From Escherichia phage CMS-2020a: a stretch of 64,000 nucleotides of DNA. The notes beneath the pieces are model-generated. The model had not been told where the DNA came from, did no database searches, and worked only from the letters and a program-made list of their open reading frames with translations. Made by a program: the position numbers and the translations under genes. Where the stretch lies: sequence record CP053388.1. One strand, 5' to 3'. This document shows positions 5,701 through 35,397 of the stretch, piece by piece (within the stretch, counting starts at the first letter, position 1; every line of letters starts with the position of its first letter).

Positions 5701-7352
5701 ATCGTGGCAAAGGTGCTAACCATCTGGCTCCCAGCGCCAACTACCCCCATGATCCCTGCTCGCATCAGTTTGAACGCAACCATCGCGGCCACGACCTTAC
5801 CGAGATTAATTACCAGCTCTTGGTTCTTTGCTAACCATTGAGCAAGCTGACGCAACCCATCGATTGCCGTTGTTAACCCCGAACCTAAAGAATTGGCAAA
5901 CGAAATCCCTTCGGCGCTATTCATGATTGAAGCCAGTTCTTTCATCCCCTTCGATAGAGAATCCAGATATCCGGCCTGACCAACCCGATCAGCAAATAAC
6001 GTGAATGACGTCTGAAGTTGCGCCAGCGCACCTGTGTAGGTTTGCATCATGTCTTTCGCTGCGTTCTCATTCTCCGCACGCAGACCAACAAACATCAGAG
6101 ACAACGCCTGTTTTGCCTCAACCGTACCGCTGGCAACGGCTTTAGTCAGTTCCCCCATAGTGATGCCTGCGGCGTCTGCCATTGCCTGCATCGCGTTAGG
6201 AACGGCTTCACCTAATTGCTGACGTAGCTCTTCCATTGACACGACGCCCTTACCGGACATCTGCTGAACGGCCACAGCCGCACGTTTCAACAGCTCACTA
6301 TCACCACCAAAACGAGCAACGGAGTCCACCAGCGCCTTCAGAGAGCCATCGGTTGGATCTAAGCCAGCAGAACGAAACTTCACGAAGGAATCTGTTAACG
6401 CCTGCATCGCGAACGGCGCATTTTGAGCCATGTCTACGATGTACTTCATGTCATCGGCGGCAGCCTGGCCAGGGTTAGACTTCTCCTTATTCAACCCACG
6501 AAGCATCACCCGCATACGTTCCATTTCGGCCGCAGCTTCAACAATAGGCTTCTGCCATCCAAACATGATGTCAGTAACCGTTCTGGCTGCATCTCCGATC
6601 TCGCCAAGCAGGAAAATGTTGCCACGAAGGCCAGAGAACATACCTCCTTCGTTACTTTTACCGCTATGGCCAGAGCCGCTACGCCGCCCGCTGCCACCAT
6701 CGCCACTTCCAGATGTACGAACGCGTACCGGCTTGCTAATCAGTTGCTGACGTCCGATAACTTCGTCCATCTGCTCACGAACCTTTTTCAGTCCCTCGGC
6801 AGCCTGACTCGTTGTGACACCCCAATTACTGAGTCGCTTCGTCGTGGTATTAAGGCGCGTATTCATGCCACTCACGGACGCAGAGGCTTCTTTGACCTCC
6901 GTACCAAAGCGGCTTGCGCTTTTGCTTGCATAGGTCGCCCAATCAGAGAAATCATTTAGCTCTGATTGCACTTTACGTAATGACGCGGTGAGTTTATCTA
7001 CTGAAGAAGTTGTCGTATCGACGCGCTCAATCAGGGCTTTAAGACCAGAATTGAGGCTGGTGATGTTGCCACGCATTTTACGCGTAGCATCTGAAGCAAG
7101 CTCAAAACCGGCAGCTACATCCTGTAGTTTATCTGCCGTAGAATCGAGCTTGCTTTCCAGAACGCCAATGATACGGGCGACCGAACCCAAAGAGCGTTCA
7201 AAGGTTTGGATTTTTTGAGCAGGCTTTGTTACCTGCTCACCAAATCGAGTAAGCAGTTTCCCCGCACGATCGATTGACGCTGTAAACTGTTTGTCTTCCA
7301 GCGACAGGATAAACTCTACGTTTTGTGACATTCCCTTGTCATCCTCTGCCAA
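2763..7352 (-). CDS. Tail tape measure protein
   Basis: 1529 aa, long helical and coiled-coil regions, Gly-rich C-terminal segment, hydrophobic mid-region; follows the chaperone pair. Confidence 0.85.
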   Translation of the reverse strand: MAEDDKGMSQNVEFILSLEDKQFTASIDRAGKLLTRFGEQVTKPAQKIQTFERSLGSVARIIGVLESKLDSTADKLQDVAAGFELASDATRKMRGNITSLNSGLKALIERVDTTTSSVDKLTASLRKVQSELNDFSDWATYASKSASRFGTEVKEASASVSGMNTRLNTTTKRLSNWGVTTSQAAEGLKKVREQMDEVIGRQQLISKPVRVRTSGSGDGGSGRRSGSGHSGKSNEGGMFSGLRGNIFLLGEIGDAARTVTDIMFGWQKPIVEAAAEMERMRVMLRGLNKEKSNPGQAAADDMKYIVDMAQNAPFAMQALTDSFVKFRSAGLDPTDGSLKALVDSVARFGGDSELLKRAAVAVQQMSGKGVVSMEELRQQLGEAVPNAMQAMADAAGITMGELTKAVASGTVEAKQALSLMFVGLRAENENAAKDMMQTYTGALAQLQTSFTLFADRVGQAGYLDSLSKGMKELASIMNSAEGISFANSLGSGLTTAIDGLRQLAQWLAKNQELVINLGKVVAAMVAFKLMRAGIMGVVGAGSQMVSTFATMATAIQTPFNLGATAVTRFNRAARMGLAPIPSLIFAIRGAITGLKGAFAGLTAFIAANPIGAAFTVATVAVAGLITYMTMLRSETSKVVDEIRKIPEAMTAAKRAQMADRAEKLEKQILADQRALKTGEGVNYVSNSAGVITHKESKADIEARLKKNQEEYQKITGTIALGDGAVAKRLAKEAAESQIEKIRAENQIFAATFVKARQEALDKIQKINDDGSLSDDEKNKLLAPLRETVNKSYLEPAQKLVDSLSSRKNATEKQIATLNDQLEKAKKDGNTEQIQKLQGSIRGYQEHLEAVAQELTQAEFERDNAAKTGKGVMSNQGTVLGLGTTDKAAQKALAQYMRNQMDSATYQRTLPDGTPMMDFEGKPIIGPKQLKTQLNLQKASSASSLEKMSDEERAAAIAALTKAREQDAAAAEKAAQRSANASQRAAKKEQAAQQKLAAGYQKALDKADQLMGQMGESSKATVSFDQSLRDTTKSLTDLANAVPNEFITQEMIDKAKKRLEDLKNATPEYREMFNRRNVEQMISTWAPEADSIISAGYTPSREEKVADFEDTYNRNLKALIELRDKASDPKVVALYTKKINQLIAAGNTALIKETGTATQKLALEYENLAEQIESTWTDLFSGLTDVLTDFVINGKMSFSSLSQSILKDITNMVVKSQITLPLMNMLGMGTTAAGSSQSGNLLTGVASAVANQGVRMGNTVNGDKSVGEATKETSSSVTGLGQTTQQTTSAIGTATNAIGSWVSGLFDSTEAKDAETKAVKDSIFSMQNLSSVTGALSAAFAMLGANASGSGNKWLNFGATVASGLVSVWAGGGFDGLMSGSSGSTSGFNNLTSSAADGTNGIPAIPKFANGGIFGKDGVIPLRAYQKGGIANSPQLALFGEGDMNEAYVPLPDGRTIPVTLSTDGMSGGGNVLSPVSIEINVHSDGSTTESGDTESIWNNAAQRMKAIALETIAQEKRPGGSLNPNTQRN

Positions 7353-7608
7353 ATATTTGCATCAGTTGCTCTTTGGCGTCAGGGTCTGCCTTATCCTGGC
7401 TTGGATCGTAGACTTTATCTGTTACGACTGGTCTTCCAATCCTGAGTTGCAAACCCTCCATGAACGCCTTCACAGCCTCGCCATCCGCCTGGGACGCACG
7501 AGCGACTTGTAAGTTGCGGACATCCTCTTCCGCACGCAGACGGTCTATATTGCGACTGAGCATCCAGAACATCGTGAGAGGAACGTTCAGTAGCTCTAAT
7601 GGCGACAC
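7339..7608 (-). CDS. Tail assembly chaperone, T-like segment (probable -1 frameshift extension of the G-like ORF)
   Basis: ORF starts with GTG; its frame stays open upstream to about 7725, overlapping the 3' end of the G-like ORF in the -1 frame. Confidence 0.45.
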   Translation of the reverse strand: MSPLELLNVPLTMFWMLSRNIDRLRAEEDVRNLQVARASQADGEAVKAFMEGLQLRIGRPVVTDKVYDPSQDKADPDAKEQLMQIFGRG

Positions 7609-7688
7609 GGCGTAGTGAGCAACTACACGACTGAAATAGAATCCGAGATCTATTGAGACGGTCCTTGTCCCGGATTCATCGCGGGAAA

Positions 7689-8006
7689 TTACTTTGCCCC
7701 TTCGCCAGCCGCTTTTTCGTTTTCTTCATCAATCACTTCCATAGCGAAGGTGAAGATCTGCTGGAGTTGCGGAACAGTCAGTTTTTCAAGAACTTCGTCA
7801 GGTACTGAAGGGATAACCTTACGAACCAGATCTGCATAAGCTGTCACTTGCTCAACAGGAGACATGTTCATGAGATCTTTGCCTTCCATCTGCTTGATGG
7901 AAACGAACAGACCTACCGTCATTTCAACGATGGGATATTCCTGACCGCCAAATTTGATGCTTTTCTTCGGAGGCAGAATGGAATCGAGATCGAGTAATTT
8001 GGTCAT
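7689..8006 (-). CDS. Tail assembly chaperone, lambda gpG-like
   Basis: 105 aa acidic protein between the tail tube and tape measure genes. Confidence 0.6.
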   Translation of the reverse strand: MTKLLDLDSILPPKKSIKFGGQEYPIVEMTVGLFVSIKQMEGKDLMNMSPVEQVTAYADLVRKVIPSVPDEVLEKLTVPQLQQIFTFAMEVIDEENEKAAGEGAK

Positions 8007-8061
8007 TGGTTAAAATCCTTTTAAAAGAGAGGCCCATCCTGAGCCTCTGCTTAATTACTGA

Positions 8062-8844: not shown

Positions 8845-8882
8845 TCATTGCGCTAATAGTAAGTATATACTTACCAATTGAG

Positions 8883-15872: not shown

Positions 15873-17129
15873 CTATCGAGAACCACCAAGAATAACACGG
15901 TTTTTGACTGGATACCTACGATGTACTGGATAGCCCAATGCGTCTGCACTATGCTCAATGCCACCTGTCTTATCCATATCTCGTGTTCCAGGCTTGTAGA
16001 TGACTTTTTCCAGTGAATCAATCAAATGCTTGCACTTCGGATCGATATACAGCCGGATATCTCCAGATGCGGACATCAGCATTCGGTTAACAGCATTAAC
16101 ACGATCCGCAATTGGCGGGTGCTTTTTCGAATAATCGACACGTAAGAATCCCTTCTCTTTGAATATGTCTACGTCAGACTCCCCACGAGCATGTTGGCGA
16201 TAAGCACCTGCCGGATCTGGAAATACCGTTACCTGTGATTTCCAGCGCCAGAAGCGTCTCTCAAGCTCATCACAAACTTCTGCCGTGTTAGAGGAAAAGA
16301 GCACCAATTCATCAATTGCCCATAGCTCACCATTTGGCTGAGGTTGCAAAATTACTGAAGACATCGGGTCAATGTTGAAGTCCTGCCCTACCCATATAGG
16401 CAACCGAGGGTTGAACTGAAGCGGTTTTACATGCACGTTACGATCGAACGGGTAGTAAACGCGCCCGGACATGTTCTCAAAGCTGGCCAGGTACTCCTGA
16501 GCGAACGATTTGGGGTCCATATCGTTCTTAGCAGCTTCAATTTCCGCCGTAGGTACAAACGGAGAATCGGCAGTTACAAACTGCCAGCTCTTCCACTGTC
16601 CCTTTCTTTGCAGCTCTACGTTCTGGCCTATCGTCCACAGTTTGTGAAATTCCGAGAAGCCTTTTGGCGTACCAATGATCAGTGCACCGCCGCGTGTCGA
16701 TGAAAGAGTAGGTCGTAACACCTTGTACCAGGTGTCAGCCTTCATATCCTGAAATTCATCAAGCACTACAAAATGCAACGCTACGCCGCGCAGAGTGTCA
16801 GGCTTATCAGCACCTTTGAGGGCGATCTCCGAACCGTTCTTCAACACGATTGTCATCGTGGTGTCGTTCTTTTTCCTAACCCACTTACGAGGCAGAACTT
16901 CCTGTAGATCGTCCCACAAAATCTGGCGAGCCATCTGGTAAGTAGGAGCGACATACCAGACCCTTTGCTTTTTTTCCTTTGCCGCCGCACGAATAATAGT
17001 GGAGATCGACAACCGGGATTTTCCCCAGCGTCGACCAGCACAAACAACTTTAAATCGATGCGGAGACTGGAAGACTTTCATCTGTCCAGAATGCAGTTGC
17101 ACAAGACTGAGCGAGGACGGGATTGCCAT
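15873..17129 (-). CDS. Terminase large subunit
   Basis: Walker A (VVCAGRRWGKS) and Walker B (HFVVLDEFQD) in the N-terminal ATPase, acidic residues in the C-terminal half; ATGA overlap with the upstream small subunit. Confidence 0.85.
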   Translation of the reverse strand: MAIPSSLSLVQLHSGQMKVFQSPHRFKVVCAGRRWGKSRLSISTIIRAAAKEKKQRVWYVAPTYQMARQILWDDLQEVLPRKWVRKKNDTTMTIVLKNGSEIALKGADKPDTLRGVALHFVVLDEFQDMKADTWYKVLRPTLSSTRGGALIIGTPKGFSEFHKLWTIGQNVELQRKGQWKSWQFVTADSPFVPTAEIEAAKNDMDPKSFAQEYLASFENMSGRVYYPFDRNVHVKPLQFNPRLPIWVGQDFNIDPMSSVILQPQPNGELWAIDELVLFSSNTAEVCDELERRFWRWKSQVTVFPDPAGAYRQHARGESDVDIFKEKGFLRVDYSKKHPPIADRVNAVNRMLMSASGDIRLYIDPKCKHLIDSLEKVIYKPGTRDMDKTGGIEHSADALGYPVHRRYPVKNRVILGGSR

Positions 17130-17761
17130 TATTCGTCCTCCCCTTCACTTCCATCATCTGTCGCATCAAATTCGCTTAGAGCTTCTTCTTCCAACGTCTC
17201 AAGCAATTCGTCATCGATGATTTCAGGCTCGTCGTCTTCCTGACGTAATTTCGCCACCTGGGAAGGCGTAAGCTCACCAAATACCAGGTTCGGAATTTCT
17301 TCCTCGTCATTTTCCGCATGATCCATGCCCAATGCTTTGGACGAAACTTCAAAGCATTTTGCAAGGGTATTACTGGCTCTCTGTAAGCTCTTGAGAGAAT
17401 CCTCAATCGCCCCTAAAGGCTTACCCTCACGTTTGGCCGTAGTGACTTCGACCATCACCATCTGCCCCAACGCATACGCCCAGCCGTCATAACGTGTACG
17501 ACGTTCTTCTATCTTTTCCGCACGGGCTTTAGCGCGAAGCTCTGCGTCAGATTTAAGAGACTCACGAACCATCTTCCCAACAGAGTCCGCGCCTTTCTCT
17601 AATCCTCGCTTTTTGAAATGTCTGGAGAGTGTTTCACGACGAATGCCGTACTCTTCCTCCAGCTTTGAGAGTGTATATTCGCCTGACGTCCATTTGGCTT
17701 CAGCTTCGGCCCACTCCGCTGGTGTCAGGCGAGTTTTTACCTCGTCTTTTTCGACCGTCAT
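17129..17761 (-). CDS. Terminase small subunit (putative)
   Basis: 210 aa, N-terminal HTH-like segment (YTLSKLEEEYGIRRETLSRHFKKRG), very acidic C-terminus, coupled to the large subunit. Confidence 0.6.
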   Translation of the reverse strand: MTVEKDEVKTRLTPAEWAEAEAKWTSGEYTLSKLEEEYGIRRETLSRHFKKRGLEKGADSVGKMVRESLKSDAELRAKARAEKIEERRTRYDGWAYALGQMVMVEVTTAKREGKPLGAIEDSLKSLQRASNTLAKCFEVSSKALGMDHAENDEEEIPNLVFGELTPSQVAKLRQEDDEPEIIDDELLETLEEEALSEFDATDDGSEGEDE

Positions 17762-17867
17762 AGATCCCTCTAAAACACACAGAGCGCGTCCATGCGCTCT
17801 AAAACAACTTGTTTACTGCATCTGCTAACCAACTTGTTTTCTGGGGTGTTTAATTAGGTCTGGCATG

Positions 17868-17922
17868 TCTTACGAAGCCTGCTTCCGTATATATTTAATA
17901 AGTTACTTATTATTTATATATA
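17868..17922. promoter_or_regulatory. Imperfect 55-bp palindrome, copy 1 (probable bidirectional terminator or regulator site)
   Basis: cctgcttccgtatatat...atatatacagaagcagg with an AT-rich centre; near-identical copy at 47953-48020. Confidence 0.5.
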
Positions 17923-17956
17923 CAGAAGCAGGTCTTTAAATAAGCTCCCAGACCGA

Positions 17957-18223
17957 TTACATCACCAGTAACTTCGCTTTGGCTCGACCTAAAGTAGTTA
18001 ACCCAAGAGTTCGGCGGTGATAGCGATTGTCACTGCGTTGGCGCGTATGCCCTTTCTCCACCAGCCCCTTTTTTATCAGAGCGCGAATTGAGAACTGGAT
18101 ACTTTGCTTGGTTGTCTTGTACGGCAAAACTTCAAGCAATTCGTCCAGGTCAAGTAGATGACCTCGCTCATAACCGAGATTGAGCGTTTTGATGATGTCC
18201 TTTTGTTTATCGGTTAACGTCAT
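17957..18223 (-). CDS. Small DNA-binding protein (winged-HTH-like), hypothetical
   Basis: 88 aa basic ORF, last gene of the ParB/ATPase operon. Confidence 0.4.
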   Translation of the reverse strand: MTLTDKQKDIIKTLNLGYERGHLLDLDELLEVLPYKTTKQSIQFSIRALIKKGLVEKGHTRQRSDNRYHRRTLGLTTLGRAKAKLLVM

Positions 18224-18232
18224 GGCAAATCC

Positions 18233-19132
18233 TTATGCCGGTAAAGCAATTTCTAACGGTTTATCCAAAGGTTGTTTGTCGAATGCCAGCAGTGGCAGCG
18301 TGTCAGGCAGTCGACGACCAAAGTCAGGGTTTCGATACACACCATACAACGGAGACGTAAAGCTCAGGTTGTGAATGTCCTTGAGCAGCTTCACAATGCT
18401 GGCCTCGTCCACCAGACTGTCGGCAATGTCCTGAATCGTCGTGCCACGATTCCGCCCAGCTTTTGCCAGGGAACTGTTCTTGTGGTAGTCCGCCACCAGA
18501 TCACGCAGTGCACGGCGACGACGAGACTCGCTCATAGCGAACAACTCTTTGACGATCGCCTCGTTATCACCCGGGTCGGAGCGGAAATGGCGCTGGAACA
18601 CACGCAGTGCACTTTCATAGCTCTTCGGTCGCTCAGGGCGGATGAACTTAAACCCTGCTTTCATGGCGAAGGGATTGTATTTGCTCATCGATGACTGGAT
18701 CTCAATGATTGGCCGGTCATGCATCCTGCTAACCAGGTTAATCATTCGATAAGAGACGCCTACGCCACGGTACTGAGTATCCACAACTGAGCGGCTGATC
18801 ACCGCAAAGTTGTTATTCACGTACCGGCCCCAGTACTGGTTAGCCACGGTGGTATTGGTAGTTGGTTTCAACTTAGGAAACATGCGATGGCGAGGTGCCA
18901 GCAGAAGTTTCGGGTAAGCCATAACCACGACGCCCACCAGACGGTCATCCAGTTCGCAGCGATAGTATGTTGGCGCGAAAGGTTTGCCGTCTGTTTTGTA
19001 GTGAAGCGATTTAAGAGCGTGCCAGTCCTCTACAGTTCCCTTTGTGACAGTCATTCGCTCCAGAAAGTCCAGATGACGCGGAAACTCTTCAGGGCGGTAG
19101 CGTTTGATGATGATATCTGCCATCTCGATCAC
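18233..19132 (-). CDS. Hypothetical protein with GNAT-like acetyltransferase motif
   Basis: 299 aa; segment RSVVDTQYRGVGVSYRMINLV resembles GNAT motif A; weak assignment. Confidence 0.35.
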   Translation of the reverse strand: MIEMADIIIKRYRPEEFPRHLDFLERMTVTKGTVEDWHALKSLHYKTDGKPFAPTYYRCELDDRLVGVVVMAYPKLLLAPRHRMFPKLKPTTNTTVANQYWGRYVNNNFAVISRSVVDTQYRGVGVSYRMINLVSRMHDRPIIEIQSSMSKYNPFAMKAGFKFIRPERPKSYESALRVFQRHFRSDPGDNEAIVKELFAMSESRRRRALRDLVADYHKNSSLAKAGRNRGTTIQDIADSLVDEASIVKLLKDIHNLSFTSPLYGVYRNPDFGRRLPDTLPLLAFDKQPLDKPLEIALPA

Positions 19133-19383
19133 CTGCGCTCGATATTGGCATTGATGAAATCCAGGCGAAGAGACTCCATCGCCCCTACCATGACATACGG
19201 GCGCCCGCCGTTATGCCAGCAATCAAGAACACTGCCGTCGTTGTTGATCATCAACAGCGCCAGGCTCTGGCTTTTTCCTTCTCTGGCGTGCTGAAGTGCT
19301 TCTTCCAGCAGGCGGATGACTTCCACGTTGTTGTTATCAGTCTCTTTCGATGGCTTCAGCTCTACGATCTTCAAATCAGGCAT
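19129..19383 (-). CDS. Hypothetical protein
   Basis: 84 aa ORF translationally coupled on both sides. Confidence 0.4.
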   Translation of the reverse strand: MPDLKIVELKPSKETDNNNVEVIRLLEEALQHAREGKSQSLALLMINNDGSVLDCWHNGGRPYVMVGAMESLRLDFINANIERR

Positions 19384-20014
19384 ATTCCACCTTCACGCGT
19401 TCTTTGTAGTGCTTGGTGATCTGCATATCCGGGCGCAGCGCGTTCTTCAGGTCTTCGTGAGTCGTCGCCACCATTACCGTCGCACCAACCTTTCGAGCGG
19501 CACGCTGGAGGTTAGATGCCACAACCTGAGCGGTTACACGGTCGAGAACAGCGCCGAACTCGTCAGCAGCCCACACTTTAGCGCCTGACTCAATCAGTTT
19601 GGCAATCTTGAGACGATATTTCTGACCGTCTGACATTTCAGAAGGCTTGCGAACAAACAGATATGCATCGTTCAGACCAGCCATAGATAACAACCCAAGC
19701 GCATCACTGGTAGTTTTGCCCAGTTGGTCAATGACGTTAACCTCATTATCGAAGGTAAAATCATCGATGGAGGCCACAGATAGCCCTTCATCCTTCATCT
19801 GGTGTTGCAGCTCGCGCAGCACAACGGATTTGCCGGAACCGGATTGGCCGGTAATGTACACCACATCGCCCTGCTTCACTTCCAGCTCCAGATTGTCGTA
19901 AAGCGTCCACTCTTTTTCGTCCAGGCCAAGCCCGAACGACTCAGCGATTTCCAACGTGCGCGTGGTTTTATTTACGCGTGTCTGAAACGATACGTTGATG
20001 ATGTATTTGCTCAT
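19376..20014 (-). CDS. Minimal ABC-type ATPase
   Basis: Walker A GQSGSGKS, signature-like SDGQKYRLKIA, Walker B VWAADEFG, H-loop ATTHE within 212 aa. Confidence 0.65.
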   Translation of the reverse strand: MSKYIINVSFQTRVNKTTRTLEIAESFGLGLDEKEWTLYDNLELEVKQGDVVYITGQSGSGKSVVLRELQHQMKDEGLSVASIDDFTFDNEVNVIDQLGKTTSDALGLLSMAGLNDAYLFVRKPSEMSDGQKYRLKIAKLIESGAKVWAADEFGAVLDRVTAQVVASNLQRAARKVGATVMVATTHEDLKNALRPDMQITKHYKERVKVEYA

Positions 20015-20679
20015 GCAGCCATCTCCCCGGAAGAGATCTTCTCCGCATATGCCACAAATGCGTCTACCCCGCTTTCTCCCGTCATTTCTTCCATGTGGGC
20101 AAGCAAATCACCAACAACAATGGCAGAGCCAGCAGGGAGCGTTTTAAAGCCCAATACGTCGACAACACGTACTTCTTCCGCTGCAACTTCACGACTGATC
20201 TCGGTGTGTTCATCCTTCTGTCGTTTAGTTTCTTCGCCAAGATCGATAACTAGCGAGTCGGTGTCCATTTCTTCTGTCATACTGCCAACGAGAACATTCA
20301 ACTCACGCTCTTCAAAGCCGAAAACCTCGATATCGTCCAGAACAAGCGACTCAAGCTCTTTCTGTAGCTTAATTGCATCGTAATCAATGCTGGCAAGTCG
20401 GTTATCTTCAAGGCGCTTCGCACGAACCTCGTCATCACTGAGATCATCGCGAACAATAACCGGTACGCGCTCAAGTCCAGCAAAAATTGCAGCCTCACGG
20501 CGGCCGTGGCCAGTAATAATTACGTCGTTCTTATCGACCGTAATTGGCTGGTCAAATCCGCGCTTTTTAATGGCTGCGGCTAGATCTCGGATCTGCTGTT
20601 CATCATGCTTTTTGGCATTCATCTCATAGGGAATAAGATCTGCCGGGTCGCGATATACGATTTCAAACTTTTTGGTCAT
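20011..20679 (-). CDS. ParB-like N-terminal domain protein (paralog 2; start adjusted to Met at 20679)
   Basis: ParB/Srx motif ITGHGRREAA; 1-nt overlap with the upstream ParB-like gene and 4-nt overlap with the ATPase gene. Confidence 0.65.
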   Translation of the reverse strand: MTKKFEIVYRDPADLIPYEMNAKKHDEQQIRDLAAAIKKRGFDQPITVDKNDVIITGHGRREAAIFAGLERVPVIVRDDLSDDEVRAKRLEDNRLASIDYDAIKLQKELESLVLDDIEVFGFEERELNVLVGSMTEEMDTDSLVIDLGEETKRQKDEHTEISREVAAEEVRVVDVLGFKTLPAGSAIVVGDLLAHMEEMTGESGVDAFVAYAEKISSGEMAA

Positions 20680-21377
20680 TACATACGCTCCTTGTAGTAG
20701 TCGACCAGCCATACCAGAGCCTCACCAGCGTTCTCCATTTCATTACCGGTGTTAATAGCCTGCTCTTTGATGATGTTTTTTATGGTTTCTGCAACACGAT
20801 CTGACGCATCGAAAGTTACTTTGAAGCGCATGGTCTGATGTTCCGCACCCACACGTTCGGTTTTCTCTCGTTTGTCGGTATCGACAGGCTCATCACTACC
20901 ACGAGACAACGCCTCCAGTGCTTCAAGGTCGATTGCCGCCTCTTTTGCTAAAACCATCGAGATTTCGTCGTCATACGGGGCGATTTCAGACAGTTGATAG
21001 TCAAGTTCTGACTGAATTTCTTCAATGAAGCGTTGCAATGCGATTTGGTCGTCTTCACCGTATCGCTCGTTGTCCACCAGTGACATCTGTTTAGCTACGA
21101 CATCGCTAATTTTGCCCACAGAAAGCACCGGAACCGTTGAAATTCCTTGCTCAATAGCAGCACGCCAGCGATGTTCGCCGCCGAGGATTTCAAAAAATCC
21201 ATCTTCAAGTTCACGAGCCAAAATTGGCTTAAAAAAGCCCAATTTTTCGATAGAACCTTTCAGTTTTTCAAAATTCTGCGCACCAACCGAATTGGTGTTC
21301 CAGGTATTCGGGCGAAGGTTGGCAACATCAACCTGCAAAATCGTGATTTTTACATCCATTTTATTGCTACAATCCAC
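20679..21377 (-). CDS. ParB-like N-terminal domain protein (paralog 1)
   Basis: Classical ParB box ILGGEHRWRAA; first gene of the operon, divergent from the helicase gene. Confidence 0.7.
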   Translation of the reverse strand: MDCSNKMDVKITILQVDVANLRPNTWNTNSVGAQNFEKLKGSIEKLGFFKPILARELEDGFFEILGGEHRWRAAIEQGISTVPVLSVGKISDVVAKQMSLVDNERYGEDDQIALQRFIEEIQSELDYQLSEIAPYDDEISMVLAKEAAIDLEALEALSRGSDEPVDTDKREKTERVGAEHQTMRFKVTFDASDRVAETIKNIIKEQAINTGNEMENAGEALVWLVDYYKERM

Positions 21378-21392
21378 TAAGTAATCACTTAC
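21367..21392. promoter_or_regulatory. Palindromic motif B in the divergent promoter region
   Basis: actaagtaatcacttacttat between the divergent ParB-like and helicase genes. Confidence 0.45.
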
Positions 21393-21441
21393 TTATTATA
21401 ATAGCCAAATAACATACAAAAGGCACTAAGGAAAGAGGTTT

Positions 21442-32105: not shown

Positions 32106-34139
32106 TTACTTAACTTGGTGGCCTGGTTTAGCACCAGCATCCGGGCTTAACAGGAAGATATCTTTTCCGCCAGGGCCAGCAGCCATCACCATGCCTTCGG
32201 AGATACCGAAGCGCATTTTACGCGGTGCCAGGTTAGCCACCATAATGGTGTGACGACCAATCAGTGCCTGTGGATCTGGATAAGCGGAACGAATGCCTGA
32301 GAAGACATTACGTTTTTCTCCGCCGAGATCCAGTGTCAGGCGCAGCAGTTTGTCAGAACCTTCGACAAACTCCGCGTTTTCAATCAGCGCCACACGCAGG
32401 TCAACTTTGGCGAAGTCGTCAAAGGTGATGGTTTCCTGAATCGGGGCGTCAGCCAGTGGGCCAGTTACCGGTGCAGCTGTGGCTTTCACTTCTTCTTTGG
32501 ATGCTTCCACCAGTGCTTCCACCTGTTTCATATCGATACGGTTATACAGTGCCTTGAACGGATTCACTTTATGGCCCAGCAGCGGTTGCTGGATACCATC
32601 CCAGGTCAGTTCTGTATTCAGGAATGCTTCTGCACGTTCAGTCAGTTTCGGCAGTACCGGTTTCAGGTACGTCATCAGCACGCGGAACAGGTTAATGCCC
32701 ATAGAGCAAATCGCCTGCAGATCGGCATCGCGTCCTTCCTGCTTCGCCACCACCCACGGAGCCTGTTCATCAACATAGCGGTTAGCCAGGTCAGCCAGTG
32801 CCATGATTTCACGGATAGCTTTGCCAAATTCGCGGCTTTCCCATGCTTCGCCAATCACTTCAGCGGCATCAGTAAAGGTTTTGTACAGTTGCGGGTCAGC
32901 CAGTTCGCTTGCCAGCACGCCGTCAAAACGCTTGTTGATAAAGCCTGCATTACGGGAGGCCAGGTTAACCACTTTGTTCACGATATCGGCATTCACGCGC
33001 TGAACGAAATCTTCCAGGTTGAGATCGATATCATCAATGCGCGAAGAGAGTTTCGCAGTGTAGTAGTAACGCAGGCTGTCGGCGTCAAAATGATTCAGCC
33101 AGGTGCTGGCTTTAATAAAGGTGCCGCGAGACTTGGACATCTTCGCACCGTTCACCGTCACATAGCCATGAACAAACAGGTTGGTCGGCTTGCGGAAGTT
33201 GCTGCCTTCTAGCATGGCAGGCCAGAACAGGCTGTGGAAGTAAACGATATCTTTGCCGATGAAGTGGTACAGCTCGGCGGTGGAGTCTTTCTTCCAGTAT
33301 TCGTCGAAGCTGGTAGTGTCGCCGCGTTTGTCGCACAGATTCTTGAAGGAACCCATGTAGCCAATCGGCGCGTCCAGCCAGACGTAGAAGTATTTGCCCG
33401 GTGCGTTCGGAATTTCAAAACCGAAGTAAGGTGCGTCACGGGAGATATCCCACTGTTGCAGGCCAGATTCAAACCACTCCTGCATTTTGTTTGCCACCTG
33501 CTCCTGCAACGCACCGCTGCGGGTCCATGCCTGCAACATTTCGCTGAAAGAAGGCAGATCAAAGAAGAAGTGTTCGGAATCACGCATTACCGGTGTAGCG
33601 CCAGAAACTACCGATTTCGGCTCGATCAGTTCCGTCGGGCTGTATGTCGCGCCGCAGACTTCACAGTTATCGCCGTATTGATCCGGCGCTTTACATTTCG
33701 GGCATGTGCCTTTTACAAAACGGTCCGGCAGGAACATGCCTTTTTCCGGGTCGTACAGCTGAGAGATGGTGCGGTTTTTAATAAAACCGTTCTCTTTCAG
33801 GCGAGTGTAGATAAGCTCGGACAACTGACGGTTCTCTTCGCTGTGCGTCGAGTGATAGTTGTCATAGCTGATGTTAAAGCCTGCGAAATCAGTCTGATGT
33901 TCCTGACTCATTTCGCCAATCATCTGCTCCGGTGTGATACCAAGCTGCTGTGCTTTCAGCATGATCGGCGTACCGTGGGCATCGTCGGCACAGATGAAAT
34001 TAACCTCGTGGCCGCGCATTCGCTGGTAACGAACCCAGACATCAGCCTGGATGTGCTCCAGCATATGGCCGAGGTGGATTGAGCCGTTAGCGTACGGCAG
34101 CGCGCACGTCACCAGAATTTTCTTCGCGACTTGGGTCAT
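32106..34139 (-). CDS. metG: Methionyl-tRNA synthetase
   Basis: 677 aa from [29 protein letters not shown] (HIGH motif) through KMSKS to the C-terminal dimerisation/tRNA-binding domain; matches E. coli MetG nearly residue for residue from memory. The track ORF (to 34268) adds a spurious 43-aa extension. Confidence 0.95.
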
Positions 34140-34296
34140 AGTAGGCATTACTTCTTTGTAGTGAAAAGGGGCTTGATAGTAACAAAATGGCCTTATGTCT
34201 GCCATGTGATAACAGCATTTCTCATAAATGATTAAATGTCGTAGCTGGAGTACACTACAAGGCGACAATTGCGCAAATTAAAATAAAGGAGACGGG

Positions 34297-35397
34297 ATGA
34301 GCGAGTCCAAATCGCCGGATGCCCTGAGAGCAATGGTAGCCGGTACGCTGGCTAATTTTCAGCACCCAACCCTGAAACACAACCTGACTACGCTTAAAGC
34401 GTTACACCATGTTGCGTTGATGGATGACACACTGCATGTCGAACTAATCATGCCTTTCGTGTGGAATAAGCCTTTTGAAGACCTGAAAGAGCAATGTAGT
34501 GGTGATCTGCTCCGTATCACTGGCGCAAAGGCTATTGACTGGAAGCTGTCGTACAACATTGCCACGCTTAAGCGTGTCAAAAACCAACCAGGCATTAATG
34601 GCGTTAAGAACATTATCGCCGTCAGCTCAGGCAAGGGCGGCGTGGGTAAATCCTCCACGGCGGTAAACCTGGCACTGGCGTTGGCTGCTGAAGGTGCGAA
34701 AGTTGGTATTTTGGATGCCGATATCTATGGTCCATCAATTCCAACCATGCTGGGCGCGGAAAACCAACGTCCAACCTCACCTGACGGTACTCACATGGCA
34801 CCTATCATGTCTCATGGCCTGGCAACCAACTCTATTGGTTATCTGGTCACCGACGACAATGCAATGGTGTGGCGTGGACCGATGGCCAGCAAGGCGCTGA
34901 TGCAGATGTTGCAGGAAACATTGTGGCCTGATCTGGACTATCTTGTTCTCGATATGCCGCCGGGCACTGGTGATATTCAGTTGACGCTGGCGCAGAACAT
35001 TCCTGTAACTGGTGCTGTTGTGGTAACTACGCCGCAAGACATCGCGCTGATCGATGCGAAGAAAGGCATTGTGATGTTCGAAAAAGTCGAAGTGCCGGTA
35101 CTGGGTATCGTTGAAAACATGAGTGTGCATATTTGCAGTAACTGCGGTCATCACGAGCCAATTTTTGGCACCGGTGGCGCACAGAAACTGGCCGAGAAAT
35201 ACAACACGCAGTTGTTAGGCCAAATGCCACTTCATATCTCTCTTCGTGAAGATCTGGATAACGGAACACCAACCGTTATTAGTCGTCCAGATAGCGAATT
35301 TACAGCTATTTATCGTGACCTCGCAGATCGCGTTGCCGCCCAAATGTATTGGCAAGGTGAAGTAATACCTGGCGAAATCGCATTCCGCGCAGTGTGA
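34297..35397 (+). CDS. apbC: Fe-S cluster carrier ATPase ApbC/Mrp
   Basis: Deviant Walker A SGKGGVGKSSTAVNLA, CxxC motif (ICSNCGHH); divergent from metG exactly as in the E. coli mrp-metG locus. Confidence 0.9.
   Translation: MSESKSPDALRAMVAGTLANFQHPTLKHNLTTLKALHHVALMDDTLHVELIMPFVWNKPFEDLKEQCSGDLLRITGAKAIDWKLSYNIATLKRVKNQPGINGVKNIIAVSSGKGGVGKSSTAVNLALALAAEGAKVGILDADIYGPSIPTMLGAENQRPTSPDGTHMAPIMSHGLATNSIGYLVTDDNAMVWRGPMASKALMQMLQETLWPDLDYLVLDMPPGTGDIQLTLAQNIPVTGAVVVTTPQDIALIDAKKGIVMFEKVEVPVLGIVENMSVHICSNCGHHEPIFGTGGAQKLAEKYNTQLLGQMPLHISLREDLDNGTPTVISRPDSEFTAIYRDLADRVAAQMYWQGEVIPGEIAFRAV

Follow-up and report, generated by a model that had tools for sequence, protein, structure and literature searches.

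A Conserved ParB, ABC ATPase and GNAT Operon beside the Terminase Genes of SSU5-Like Phage-Plasmids: A Candidate System for DNA Modification before Packaging

Introduction

What is the function of an operon in which two ParB-like proteins, an ABC-type ATPase and an acetyltransferase-like protein of the GNAT type are encoded together, next to the packaging genes of a phage-plasmid? The question is raised by six genes lying between positions 17,957 and 21,392 of a 64,000-nucleotide (nt) stretch of the sequence record CP053388.1. This whole stretch is called here the window. A partition, DNA-modification or anti-defence module had been suggested in the initial annotation. The answer that we favour, with a probability of roughly 40%, is a lytic-cycle, ParB-assisted and ATP-driven acyl-CoA transferase that would modify the phage DNA before packaging. 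DNA modification at this stage is more likely than plasmid partition; among the functions first listed, partition did not hold, whereas DNA modification and anti-defence are now better grounded.

The window belongs to an SSU5-like Escherichia coli phage-plasmid. This assignment follows from the 100% identity of the 3.5-kb region to E. coli plasmids, for example pLAU-OXA1, and from the presence of this region, with the cluster, in approximately 780 plasmids of PLSDB, the hosts being Klebsiella, Escherichia, Enterobacter, Yersinia and Salmonella.

Gene Content and Conservation of the Operon

The six coupled open reading frames (ORFs) predicted on the minus strand were all present and tightly packed. 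With gene starts taken from the PGAP and SSU5 annotations, the order of transcription is ParB1 (20679-21359, 226 amino acids (aa); the start at 21377 proposed earlier is a GTG-extended one), ParB2 (20011-20679, 222 aa), the ABC ATPase (19376-20014, 212 aa), an 84-aa ORF (19129-19383), the GNAT-like protein (18233-19123, 296 aa, or 299 aa from a GTG at 19132) and an 88-aa protein with a probable winged helix-turn-helix (wHTH) domain (17957-18223). The five successive junctions measure -1 nt (TAATG), -4 nt (ATGA), -8 nt, +5 nt (-4 nt if the GTG start is used) and +9 nt. Stop and start codons thus overlap at three or four of the five junctions and not at the rest, and the statement that they overlap throughout was therefore nearly right. 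A gap of 195 nt separates the wHTH gene from the gene of the TerS-like protein.

Each of the six proteins matched a dedicated PHROG family, with E-values from 1e-45 to 1e-165. The cluster is far beyond chance, because of these six strong matches and because its arrangement is kept at 36-45% protein identity in distant bacteria. Homologues of the GNAT-like protein in this range of identity were located in contigs of about 100 kb or in prophages of alpha-, beta- and gamma-proteobacteria; a first pass on viral contigs with the GNAT alignment, and a first search for ParB1 homologues, had returned near-identical relatives only. A DEAD/ResIII helicase gene lies upstream of ParB1 and is transcribed divergently, while the terminase, portal, head and tail genes are found downstream, on the same strand as the cluster. 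The order divergent helicase, ParB1, ParB2, ABC ATPase, zero to three unrelated small genes, GNAT-like protein, in most cases the wHTH protein, gap, TerS, TerL and portal was observed in 28 of 28 loci at species level, and two more genomes showed it as well. The module is a core component of the lineage, being present in each of these 28 relatives. The 84-aa ORF, a genuine gene in the window, occupies a variable slot and is absent or replaced in relatives; the conserved core therefore consists of ParB1, ParB2, the ABC ATPase and the GNAT-like protein, usually accompanied by the wHTH protein.

The ABC ATPase, the GNAT-Like Protein and Their Fused Relatives

The description of the 212-aa protein as an ABC-type ATPase was confirmed by matches to Pfam ABC_tran (E = 6e-13), phrog_293 and phrog_11143. 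Its motifs are intact (Walker A G56-S63, signature S128-D-G-Q131, Walker B D151-E152, and H186), and the segments GQSGSGKS, MSDGQ, AADEF and TTHED are kept in 30 ABC orthologues as well as in fused relatives. The third protein is a complete, minimal and soluble ABC ATPase. No gene for a membrane protein or permease was detected in the operon or in the homologous loci examined. Because of this, and because the ATPase is fused to a GNAT domain elsewhere, identity as an ABC transporter was ruled out and the annotations carrying this name are misleading.

The GNAT-like motif reported initially in a 299-aa protein corresponds to a real feature of the 296-aa form, in which the alpha/beta GNAT fold is followed by a C-terminal helical extension of about 130 aa. 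The acyl-CoA pyrophosphate loop (Q/R-x-x-G-x-G/A) is present as R122-G-V-G125-V-S127, with Ser instead of Gly or Ala at the last position. R122 and G125 were invariant in 43 GNAT sequences and in the fused family, as were the candidate catalytic residues of the GNAT alignment. At the level of sequence, a Pfam scan to E = 0.1 gave only Acetyltransf_10 (E = 0.038) and a TPR match, there was no match by sequence in the PDB, and the NCBIfam scan of the operon returned generic ParB and ABC matches and none for the GNAT-like protein.

A profile made from the GNAT alignment was searched against 1.8 billion representative proteins and retrieved 987 relatives. Among the best 150 of these 987, most of those outside the SSU5 lineage are single proteins of approximately 450-500 aa, in which an ABC ATPase is followed, from about residue 200-230, by a GNAT-like part; Pfam recognised ABC_tran and Acetyltransf in them. 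In an alignment of 41 fused proteins, every conserved motif of the two window proteins was common to the split and the fused forms (FGLG, LSDGQKYR, DEF..LDR, ATTH, HY(K/R), YRGxGxG, NPF..KAG and Y..NP), including those of the C-terminal extension. The ABC ATPase and the GNAT-like protein of the window are thus the N- and C-terminal halves of a split ABC-GNAT enzyme.

The fusions extended further. ParB-ABC-GNAT triple fusions of about 610-645 aa were encoded by 11 of the 74 metagenomic loci carrying the enzyme, and in another locus (L187) the ABC-GNAT gene is followed by a separate ParB gene and then by a terminase. A family-B DNA polymerase (PolB) was found N-terminal to ABC-GNAT, as a 1260-aa ORF in two viral contigs. 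In other variants the ABC ATPase was interrupted by an intein that carries a LAGLIDADG endonuclease, or there was a C-terminal TFIIB repeat which suggests archaeal elements (the intein, PolB and TFIIB forms are proteins P0164, P0178, P0192 and P0155 and loci L145 and L146). These gene fusions, the strongest evidence in this respect, argue that the parts of the operon form a single functional system and that the ParB-ABC-GNAT core is one unit. They also bear on a reservation made at the outset, namely that the ATPase could turn out to be a known terminase or replication factor and the ParB-like proteins packaging nucleases with no link to the other genes. The ATPase is neither of these, and both ABC-GNAT and ParB-ABC-GNAT fusions occur elsewhere. 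Ordinary packaging nucleases were rejected as an identity for the ParB-like proteins, which show no nuclease-specific features and are linked to ABC-GNAT by the fusions, although they may yet have a nuclease activity.

The surroundings of the triple fusions raise the possibility of a defence or exclusion system, in which a ParB-ABC-GNAT sensor-effector would detect invading DNA and block competitors, one way being to acylate their DNA or a component of translation. In four loci (L221, L198, L218 and L175), the triple fusion lies beside type I restriction-modification genes, Cas4-Cas1 and type I-U cas genes, a BrxD-like ATPase or a Schlafen/AlbA_2 protein, often with a helix-turn-helix (HTH) gene upstream. 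We consider such a role decidedly unlikely for the operon of the window. The core is set between replication and packaging genes and not in a variable island, most fused homologues are located in viral structural or packaging regions, and the operon is silent in the lysogen (see below), at the time when exclusion would be needed. Moreover, no known or candidate defence family was specifically matched by the PADLOC 2.0 models, which gave generic matches only (to MTase_II through its ParB part, and to mad3, mad8 and PtuA through a similar P-loop); the known defence systems were discarded as an identity on this ground. A ParB-assisted enzyme acting on phage DNA remains the reading that we favour.

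The ParB-Like Proteins and the Question of Partition

ParB_N (PF02195) was matched by ParB1 (E = 3e-13) and by ParB2 (E = 1.5e-8). The two proteins share 33% identity over 116 aa by BLASTP, and the hhalign comparison of ParB2 with the ParB1 orthologues covered 200 columns at 99.1% probability. They are true paralogues over almost their full length, as had been supposed from their N-terminal domains, although the GxRRxRAA box cited in support exists in neither of them in this exact form (GGEHRWRAA in ParB1, TGHGRREAA in ParB2). Both have the ParB/Srx fold, with the arginine of the GxxR P-motif, and the same layout: a nucleotide-binding domain (NBD, about residues 1-105) is joined by a strongly acidic linker to a C-terminal domain (CTD) that is small and conserved. 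In the structural model of ParB1, the NBD (residues 1-100) had a predicted local distance difference test score (pLDDT) above 90 and was followed by helices, and residues about 141-174 were disordered. The CTD (175-226, pLDDT 84-92) was modelled as one unpaired strand and two helices, and by inspection it may correspond to a ribbon-helix-helix dimerisation unit. ParB1 retains the equivalents of E62, R64 and N97.

ParB2 is characterised by an invariant GHGR motif in its NBD, a domain of the kind that also occurs in fusions with DNA methyltransferases of phages. It matched phrog_930 (E = 1e-112), phrog_498, a ParB-DNA methyltransferase family (E = 5e-32), and PADLOC MTase_II (E = 2.7e-17); its PDB matches covered the NBD alone. 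An HTH DNA-binding domain (DBD) was sought in ParB1 and in ParB2 and was found in neither. Because they consist of NBD and CTD with no HTH DBD, and because ParB2 is nearest to the ParB-methyltransferase fusions, the two proteins look like partners of a modification enzyme and not like centromere binders.

Partition or maintenance of the plasmid, by an atypical pair of ParBs with the ABC ATPase as their motor, is what the names given to these genes imply: two ParB-fold proteins are carried by a low-copy phage-plasmid, and annotators routinely call them partition proteins. The initial annotation had already pointed out that the cluster contains no ParA-type gene and is thus not a ParAB cassette; its sole ATPase is indeed ABC-type. 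In addition, neither ParB1 nor ParB2 matched the ParA-binding motif [LFI]G[KR]G[LFI] (defined in PMC12704722). A separate MipZ/ParA/CbiA-type cassette, composed of a 222-aa ATPase and a 117-aa downstream partner, was located in a part of the identical plasmid pLAU-OXA1 that lies beyond the window (NZ_CP045278, 29439-30466), where it adjoins a DUF1778-GNAT toxin-antitoxin pair. It is likely the true partition cassette of this type of phage-plasmid. Fused homologues of the operon genes, for their part, lie beside the terminase in viruses that are not plasmids.

The published transcriptome of E. coli LF82 provided further information. In the Cyrano lysogen, the normalised expression of the corresponding genes (CYRAN_119-123) was 5.0-9.5, against a median of 9.8 for the prophage background (PMC9928086). 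The cutoff used for genes expressed in lysogeny ("morons") was 49, and the neighbouring helicase reached 46 (PMC9928086). In this lysogen the operon is silent at the level of transcription, and it belongs to the lytic cycle. Since a maintenance function needs expression in the lysogen, this silence counts against partition. With a separate ParA cassette on the identical plasmid and an operon at background level in the plasmid state, and given the lack of a ParA-binding motif and of an HTH DBD, partition was rejected; it is very unlikely, to the point of being almost negligible.

Two chromosomal-type cargo genes were observed elsewhere in the window. One encodes a full-length methionyl-tRNA synthetase (32106-34268, minus strand) and the other, divergent from it, an ApbC/Mrp (NUBPL-type) Fe-S carrier ATPase (34297-35397, plus strand), which is named "septum site-determining protein" in Cyrano and is expressed in lysogeny. 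The ApbC/Mrp ATPase is not a partition ParA.

The Terminase Neighbourhood

The initial annotation had placed the cluster next to the packaging genes and treated it as one coupled module, and both points hold: TerS and TerL adjoin it, and the fusions found elsewhere tie its parts together. The TerS-like DNA-binding protein (17129-17761, minus strand; phrog_867, E = 2e-100) and the large terminase TerL (15873-17129, minus strand; Terminase_6N/6C, phrog_2) are conserved neighbours and lie outside the module.

Adjacency to a terminase was also found for the fused enzyme. The viral loci considered are contigs related to the fused protein P0180, and the counts are of evaluable loci, not of independent adjacency events. 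The fused ABC-GNAT gene abutted a TerL gene of the same strand in 53 of 75 such loci (18/23 viral and 35/52 metagenomic), and in the remaining 22 TerL was not adjacent. The TerLs concerned are distant from the SSU5-type TerL (hidden Markov model E-values of 1e-4 to 1e-22), and near the fused-gene loci no portal of the SSU5 type came to light. Both possible orders were seen, TerL followed by ABC-GNAT, and ABC-GNAT followed by a small ORF and TerL. One locus (L120) comprised, in this order, a Myb-like small protein, TerL, ABC-GNAT, a 197-aa ORF and a 768-aa N6 DNA methylase.

Could the module be an accessory of packaging that modifies no base at all? The ParBs would bind the concatemer near the packaging start and, with ABC-GNAT, prepare the DNA or the terminase and portal; examples would be the removal or acetylation of proteins bound to the DNA, the marking of the pac region or the regulation of TerS/TerL through acetylation. 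The position of ABC-GNAT directly beside TerL, in three gene arrangements and in distantly related viruses, speaks for such a role, as does the fact that the module is core in the lineage. The ends of the linear SSU5 and Cyrano genomes, as deposited, also favour it, since they fall between the operon and TerS, where a 55-bp palindrome is present as well. A TerS-like gene, however, is already present separately in both the SSU5-like and the fused-type viruses, and therefore no packaging component is obviously missing. The 22 loci with a non-adjacent TerL, the triple fusions in cellular loci devoid of terminase, and the terminator-like hairpin between the operon and TerS fit this explanation poorly, and the PolB fusions indicate replication over packaging. 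On balance we regard a purely packaging role as unlikely.

Proposed Function

We propose that the core of the operon is a four-protein machine made of two ParB/Srx-fold proteins, each with a nucleoside triphosphate (NTP)-binding domain, an acidic linker and a dimerising CTD, and of the split ABC/GNAT enzyme. In this model, ParB1 and ParB2 would be NTP-gated DNA adaptors or activators and would load the ABC-GNAT enzyme onto replicated phage DNA. Binding and hydrolysis of ATP by an ABC dimer would power the engagement of the substrate, and the GNAT-like protein would move an acyl group from acyl-CoA to a DNA base. The adjacent terminase would then package the modified DNA, which neither restriction nor defence nucleases of the host would attack. 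Regulation of the operon would fall to the 88-aa wHTH protein, and the 84-aa gene would be an exchangeable accessory. DNA as the substrate, the transfer of an acyl group, the activating role of the ParBs and the protective effect are all points that we infer.

Acylation of DNA is favoured because ParB-fold proteins are already associated with DNA-modifying enzymes, as in a ParB-activated dioxygenase, in ParB fusions and in the Dpd and Dnd systems, and because the GNAT-like protein has an acyl-CoA loop and counts Mom among its structural matches. The closest precedent is experimental: a phage ParB composed of NBD and CTD, with no obvious DBD, is the obligate activator of a post-replicative thymine dioxygenase, and terminases were found in 19% of the 5mYOX-ParB neighbourhoods (PMC13229309). 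ParB1 and ParB2 have the same layout, are encoded next to an enzyme and have terminase neighbours. Unlike in the 5mYOX system, their partner is an ABC ATPase and a GNAT-like protein instead of an iron/2-oxoglutarate dioxygenase, the ParBs are two paralogues instead of one, and the modified base is putative. A survey of the ParB-CTPase fold reported phage fusions to DNA methyltransferases, typically in prophages and with a suggested anti-defence role, and bacterial fusions to acetyltransferases, one of which binds GTP (PMC12704722). In the phage fusions (phrog_498; PADLOC MTase_II, PDLC03229), as in the window, a ParB fold is coupled to a group-transfer enzyme, and the NBD of ParB2 is closest to theirs. 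They differ in that their transferase is an S-adenosylmethionine-dependent methyltransferase and not a GNAT with a dedicated ATPase, and in that the transferase is a separate polypeptide here and fused in other lineages. The ATPase and the GNAT-like protein taken together are, motif for motif, a split version of the COG2401-type ABC ATPase-acetyltransferase (MK0520-like), a family name which is a domain-architecture label only.

More remote comparisons were made. The DNA-modifying systems Dnd, with the SMC/ABC-like ATPase DndD and DndC, and Dpd, with DpdA, also combine a ParB-fold protein (the ParB-like DndB, and the ParB-like ATPase DpdB), an NTPase and a DNA-modifying enzyme. Their enzymes are PAPS-reductase-like and TGT-like instead of GNAT, they are cellular and linked to defence whereas the present operon is a phage core operon, and PADLOC gave no match to their components beyond a weak generic one to the DndF P-loop. 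TmcA/NAT10 enzymes combine NTPase and GNAT domains and acetylate RNA cytidine in an ATP-dependent manner. This offers a mechanistic analogy for an ABC-GNAT pair acting on a nucleic-acid base, with the difference that the ATPase of TmcA/NAT10 is helicase-like and not ABC, and that its substrate is tRNA or rRNA. Mom of phage Mu, a GNAT-fold DNA adenine methylcarbamoylase, needs neither ATPase nor ParB, unlike the system of the window, and the Pfam scan to E = 0.1 gave no membership in its sequence family. With ParABS, finally, the common feature is the ParB/Srx-fold N-terminal domain; the ParA, the ParA-binding motif, the HTH DBD and the expression in the plasmid state are lacking here, and the replicon type has a ParA cassette of its own.

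On the basis of a DBD-less ParB partner that is encoded with, or fused to, an enzyme, the module was classed with the ParB-assisted nucleic-acid-modifying modules of mobile elements. The ABC ATPase-acetyltransferase architecture already has a COG label, and fusions of ParB with acetyltransferases are on record. No description of the system, of its split or fused forms, of its linkage to the terminase or of any function was found in the literature, nor anything on the function of COG2401. There is a substantial chance that the module stands for a new chemistry of DNA modification. A wider proposition, which we put forward tentatively and with more doubt than conviction, is that ParB-ABC-GNAT constitutes an unrecognised class of ATP-driven DNA base N-acyltransferase, spread among tailed bacterial (and probably archaeal) viruses and cellular defence islands, in which ParB-fold proteins would be the loading or activating subunits and an acyl mark such as N4-acyl-dC or N6-acyl-dA would be added just before packaging.

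Several observations weigh against modification of phage DNA. The case for DNA as the substrate is only circumstantial, being drawn from the adjacency to TerL, the PolB fusions, the neighbouring methyltransferase and the rank of Mom-like folds. Late expression in common, or synteny inherited within one broad viral clade, could account for the adjacency instead of function. Mom, for its part, is among the best structural matches of the GNAT-like protein without standing out, and its likeness at the level of the fold is no stronger than that of many ordinary GNATs, which score alike. GNATs mostly acylate proteins and small molecules, and no ABC ATPase is known to assist base modification, although the DndD of Dnd is SMC/ABC-like. 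The triple fusions in contexts resembling cellular defence islands would fit a role in defence or sensing just as well. Gating by NTP is itself uncertain, because ParB2 has His in place of the catalytic Glu of the CTPase ParBs and ParB1 has NTN where the QPR box is expected.

The Accessory Slot and the 88-aa Protein

The interval between the ABC ATPase and GNAT genes (19129-19383 in the window) is a hotspot of exchange. Cyrano, PhiR41_1 and CMS-2020a lack the 84-aa ORF which occupies it here (phrog_796, E = 5e-47), and the slot is empty in Cyrano; zero to three unrelated small genes were found there in distant relatives, for example Phage_gp49_66 and RyR-domain genes in Ectothiorhodospira. The slot covers positions 6961-7999 in locus L003 and 7515-8008 in locus L004. 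Alphaproteobacterial relatives have additional insertion slots between ParB1 and ParB2 and between ParB2 and the ABC ATPase. The 84-aa gene is an exchangeable accessory.

Such a slot behaves as an accessory or anti-defence hotspot, and this would suit a host-takeover or anti-defence protein acetyltransferase, the ParBs targeting DNA-bound host proteins (of the nucleoid or of DNA-scanning defence) and the ATP-dependent GNAT acetylating and inactivating them. Proteins are the commonest substrates of GNATs, and expression of the operon only outside lysogeny is in keeping with this scheme, as is the anti-defence role suggested for phage ParB fusions (PMC12704722). Anti-defence sets, however, are rarely a universal and syntenic core across alpha-, beta- and gamma-proteobacteria whose defences differ. 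The scheme leaves the PolB fusion and the adjacency to the terminase unexplained, and no similarity to known anti-defence proteins was detected, PADLOC giving generic ATPase and MTase-ParB matches only. Protein acetylation is in our view quite unlikely, and modification of the phage DNA before packaging is the explanation that we retain.

The 88-aa protein, considered a DNA-binding protein from the start, is basic and matched phrog_900 (E = 2e-45). It gave weak but mutually consistent winged-helix matches to LexA_DNA_bind, Sta1/Lrs14, the CARF C-terminal wHTH and, over residues 37-84, MarR/PadR structures, which make a wHTH domain probable. The gene lies 3' of the GNAT gene in most distant relatives. 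The protein is probably the transcriptional regulator of the module.

Flanking Motifs and Regulation

The 82-nt spacer between the divergent helicase and ParB1 genes contains a candidate promoter and operator (21378..21400, minus strand), whose function is deduced from sequence: a perfect TATAAT (21400-21395) is followed by the palindrome TAAGTGATTACTTA (21391-21378). The corresponding motif, TAAGTA-N4-TACTTA or in its general form TAAGT-N0-10-ACTTA, had 8 matches in the window compared to approximately 1 expected, at positions 8860, 14351/14355, 17899, 21378, 28435, 53497 and 58214. It was present in the helicase-ParB1 spacer of at least nine distant relatives. Relatives from other bacterial classes had it in this spacer, ahead of TerS and in the TerL-portal interval (loci L092, L095, L098, L104, L107, L110-L112 and L114-L116). 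It may represent an operator or promoter element common to the whole lineage, with the 88-aa wHTH protein as a candidate binder.

The interval between the wHTH and TerS genes (17780..17932, minus strand) is the predicted 3' boundary of the operon and a possible regulatory hub. A near-perfect palindrome of 55 bp (17878-17932) is centred on the motif TAAGTTACTTA; it is not kept as such in other genera, where the central TAAGT..ACTTA alone recurs. Further on are an operator-like motif, AACAACTTGTT, at 17803-17813, and a terminator-like hairpin with a GC stem and a T-tract (17801-17780), which ends 19 nt ahead of the ATG of TerS. A second palindrome, AACAANTTGTT, had 9 matches in the window compared to 0.21 expected (17803, 27174, 27938, 28841, 31959, 32010, 44824, 45553 and 55774): one copy, along with a degenerate copy at about 17828, is located just upstream of TerS, and several are in the regulatory region at 27-32 kb. 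It probably marks the operator of another global regulator. The layout of the interval resembles a late promoter followed by a terminator that permits read-through, or else a packaging-site region. Scans for sigma-70 and terminator consensus sequences gave no enrichment over shuffled sequences. With a candidate promoter and a palindrome upstream and palindromes and a terminator-like hairpin downstream, the six genes probably constitute their own transcription unit, apart from the TerS-TerL late operon. The link first envisaged between the ParB-like proteins and the direct repeats ("iterons") at about 26.5 and 29.7 kb was not found; the flanks of the operon are marked by the two other palindromic motifs.

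Significance

SSU5 and Cyrano can both be cultivated, and the hypothesis is thus directly testable in them. The module is carried by hundreds of clinically relevant phage-plasmids of Enterobacterales, among them SSU5, the pHCM2/pMT1-like elements and carriers of resistance genes, and annotations regularly give its genes the wrong names, "partition protein" and "ABC transporter". Its fusions and its recurrence beside the terminase in distantly related viruses point to a broadly used and unstudied step of the lytic cycle. If acylation of DNA is the true function, the combination of ParB, ABC ATPase and GNAT would enlarge the hypermodification of phage DNA by a chemistry and an enzyme architecture that are both new, and would extend the recently demonstrated role of the ParB fold as an activator of DNA-modifying enzymes. 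The acyl mark would then be relevant to the evasion of restriction, to sequencing artefacts and to the host range of phage-plasmids.

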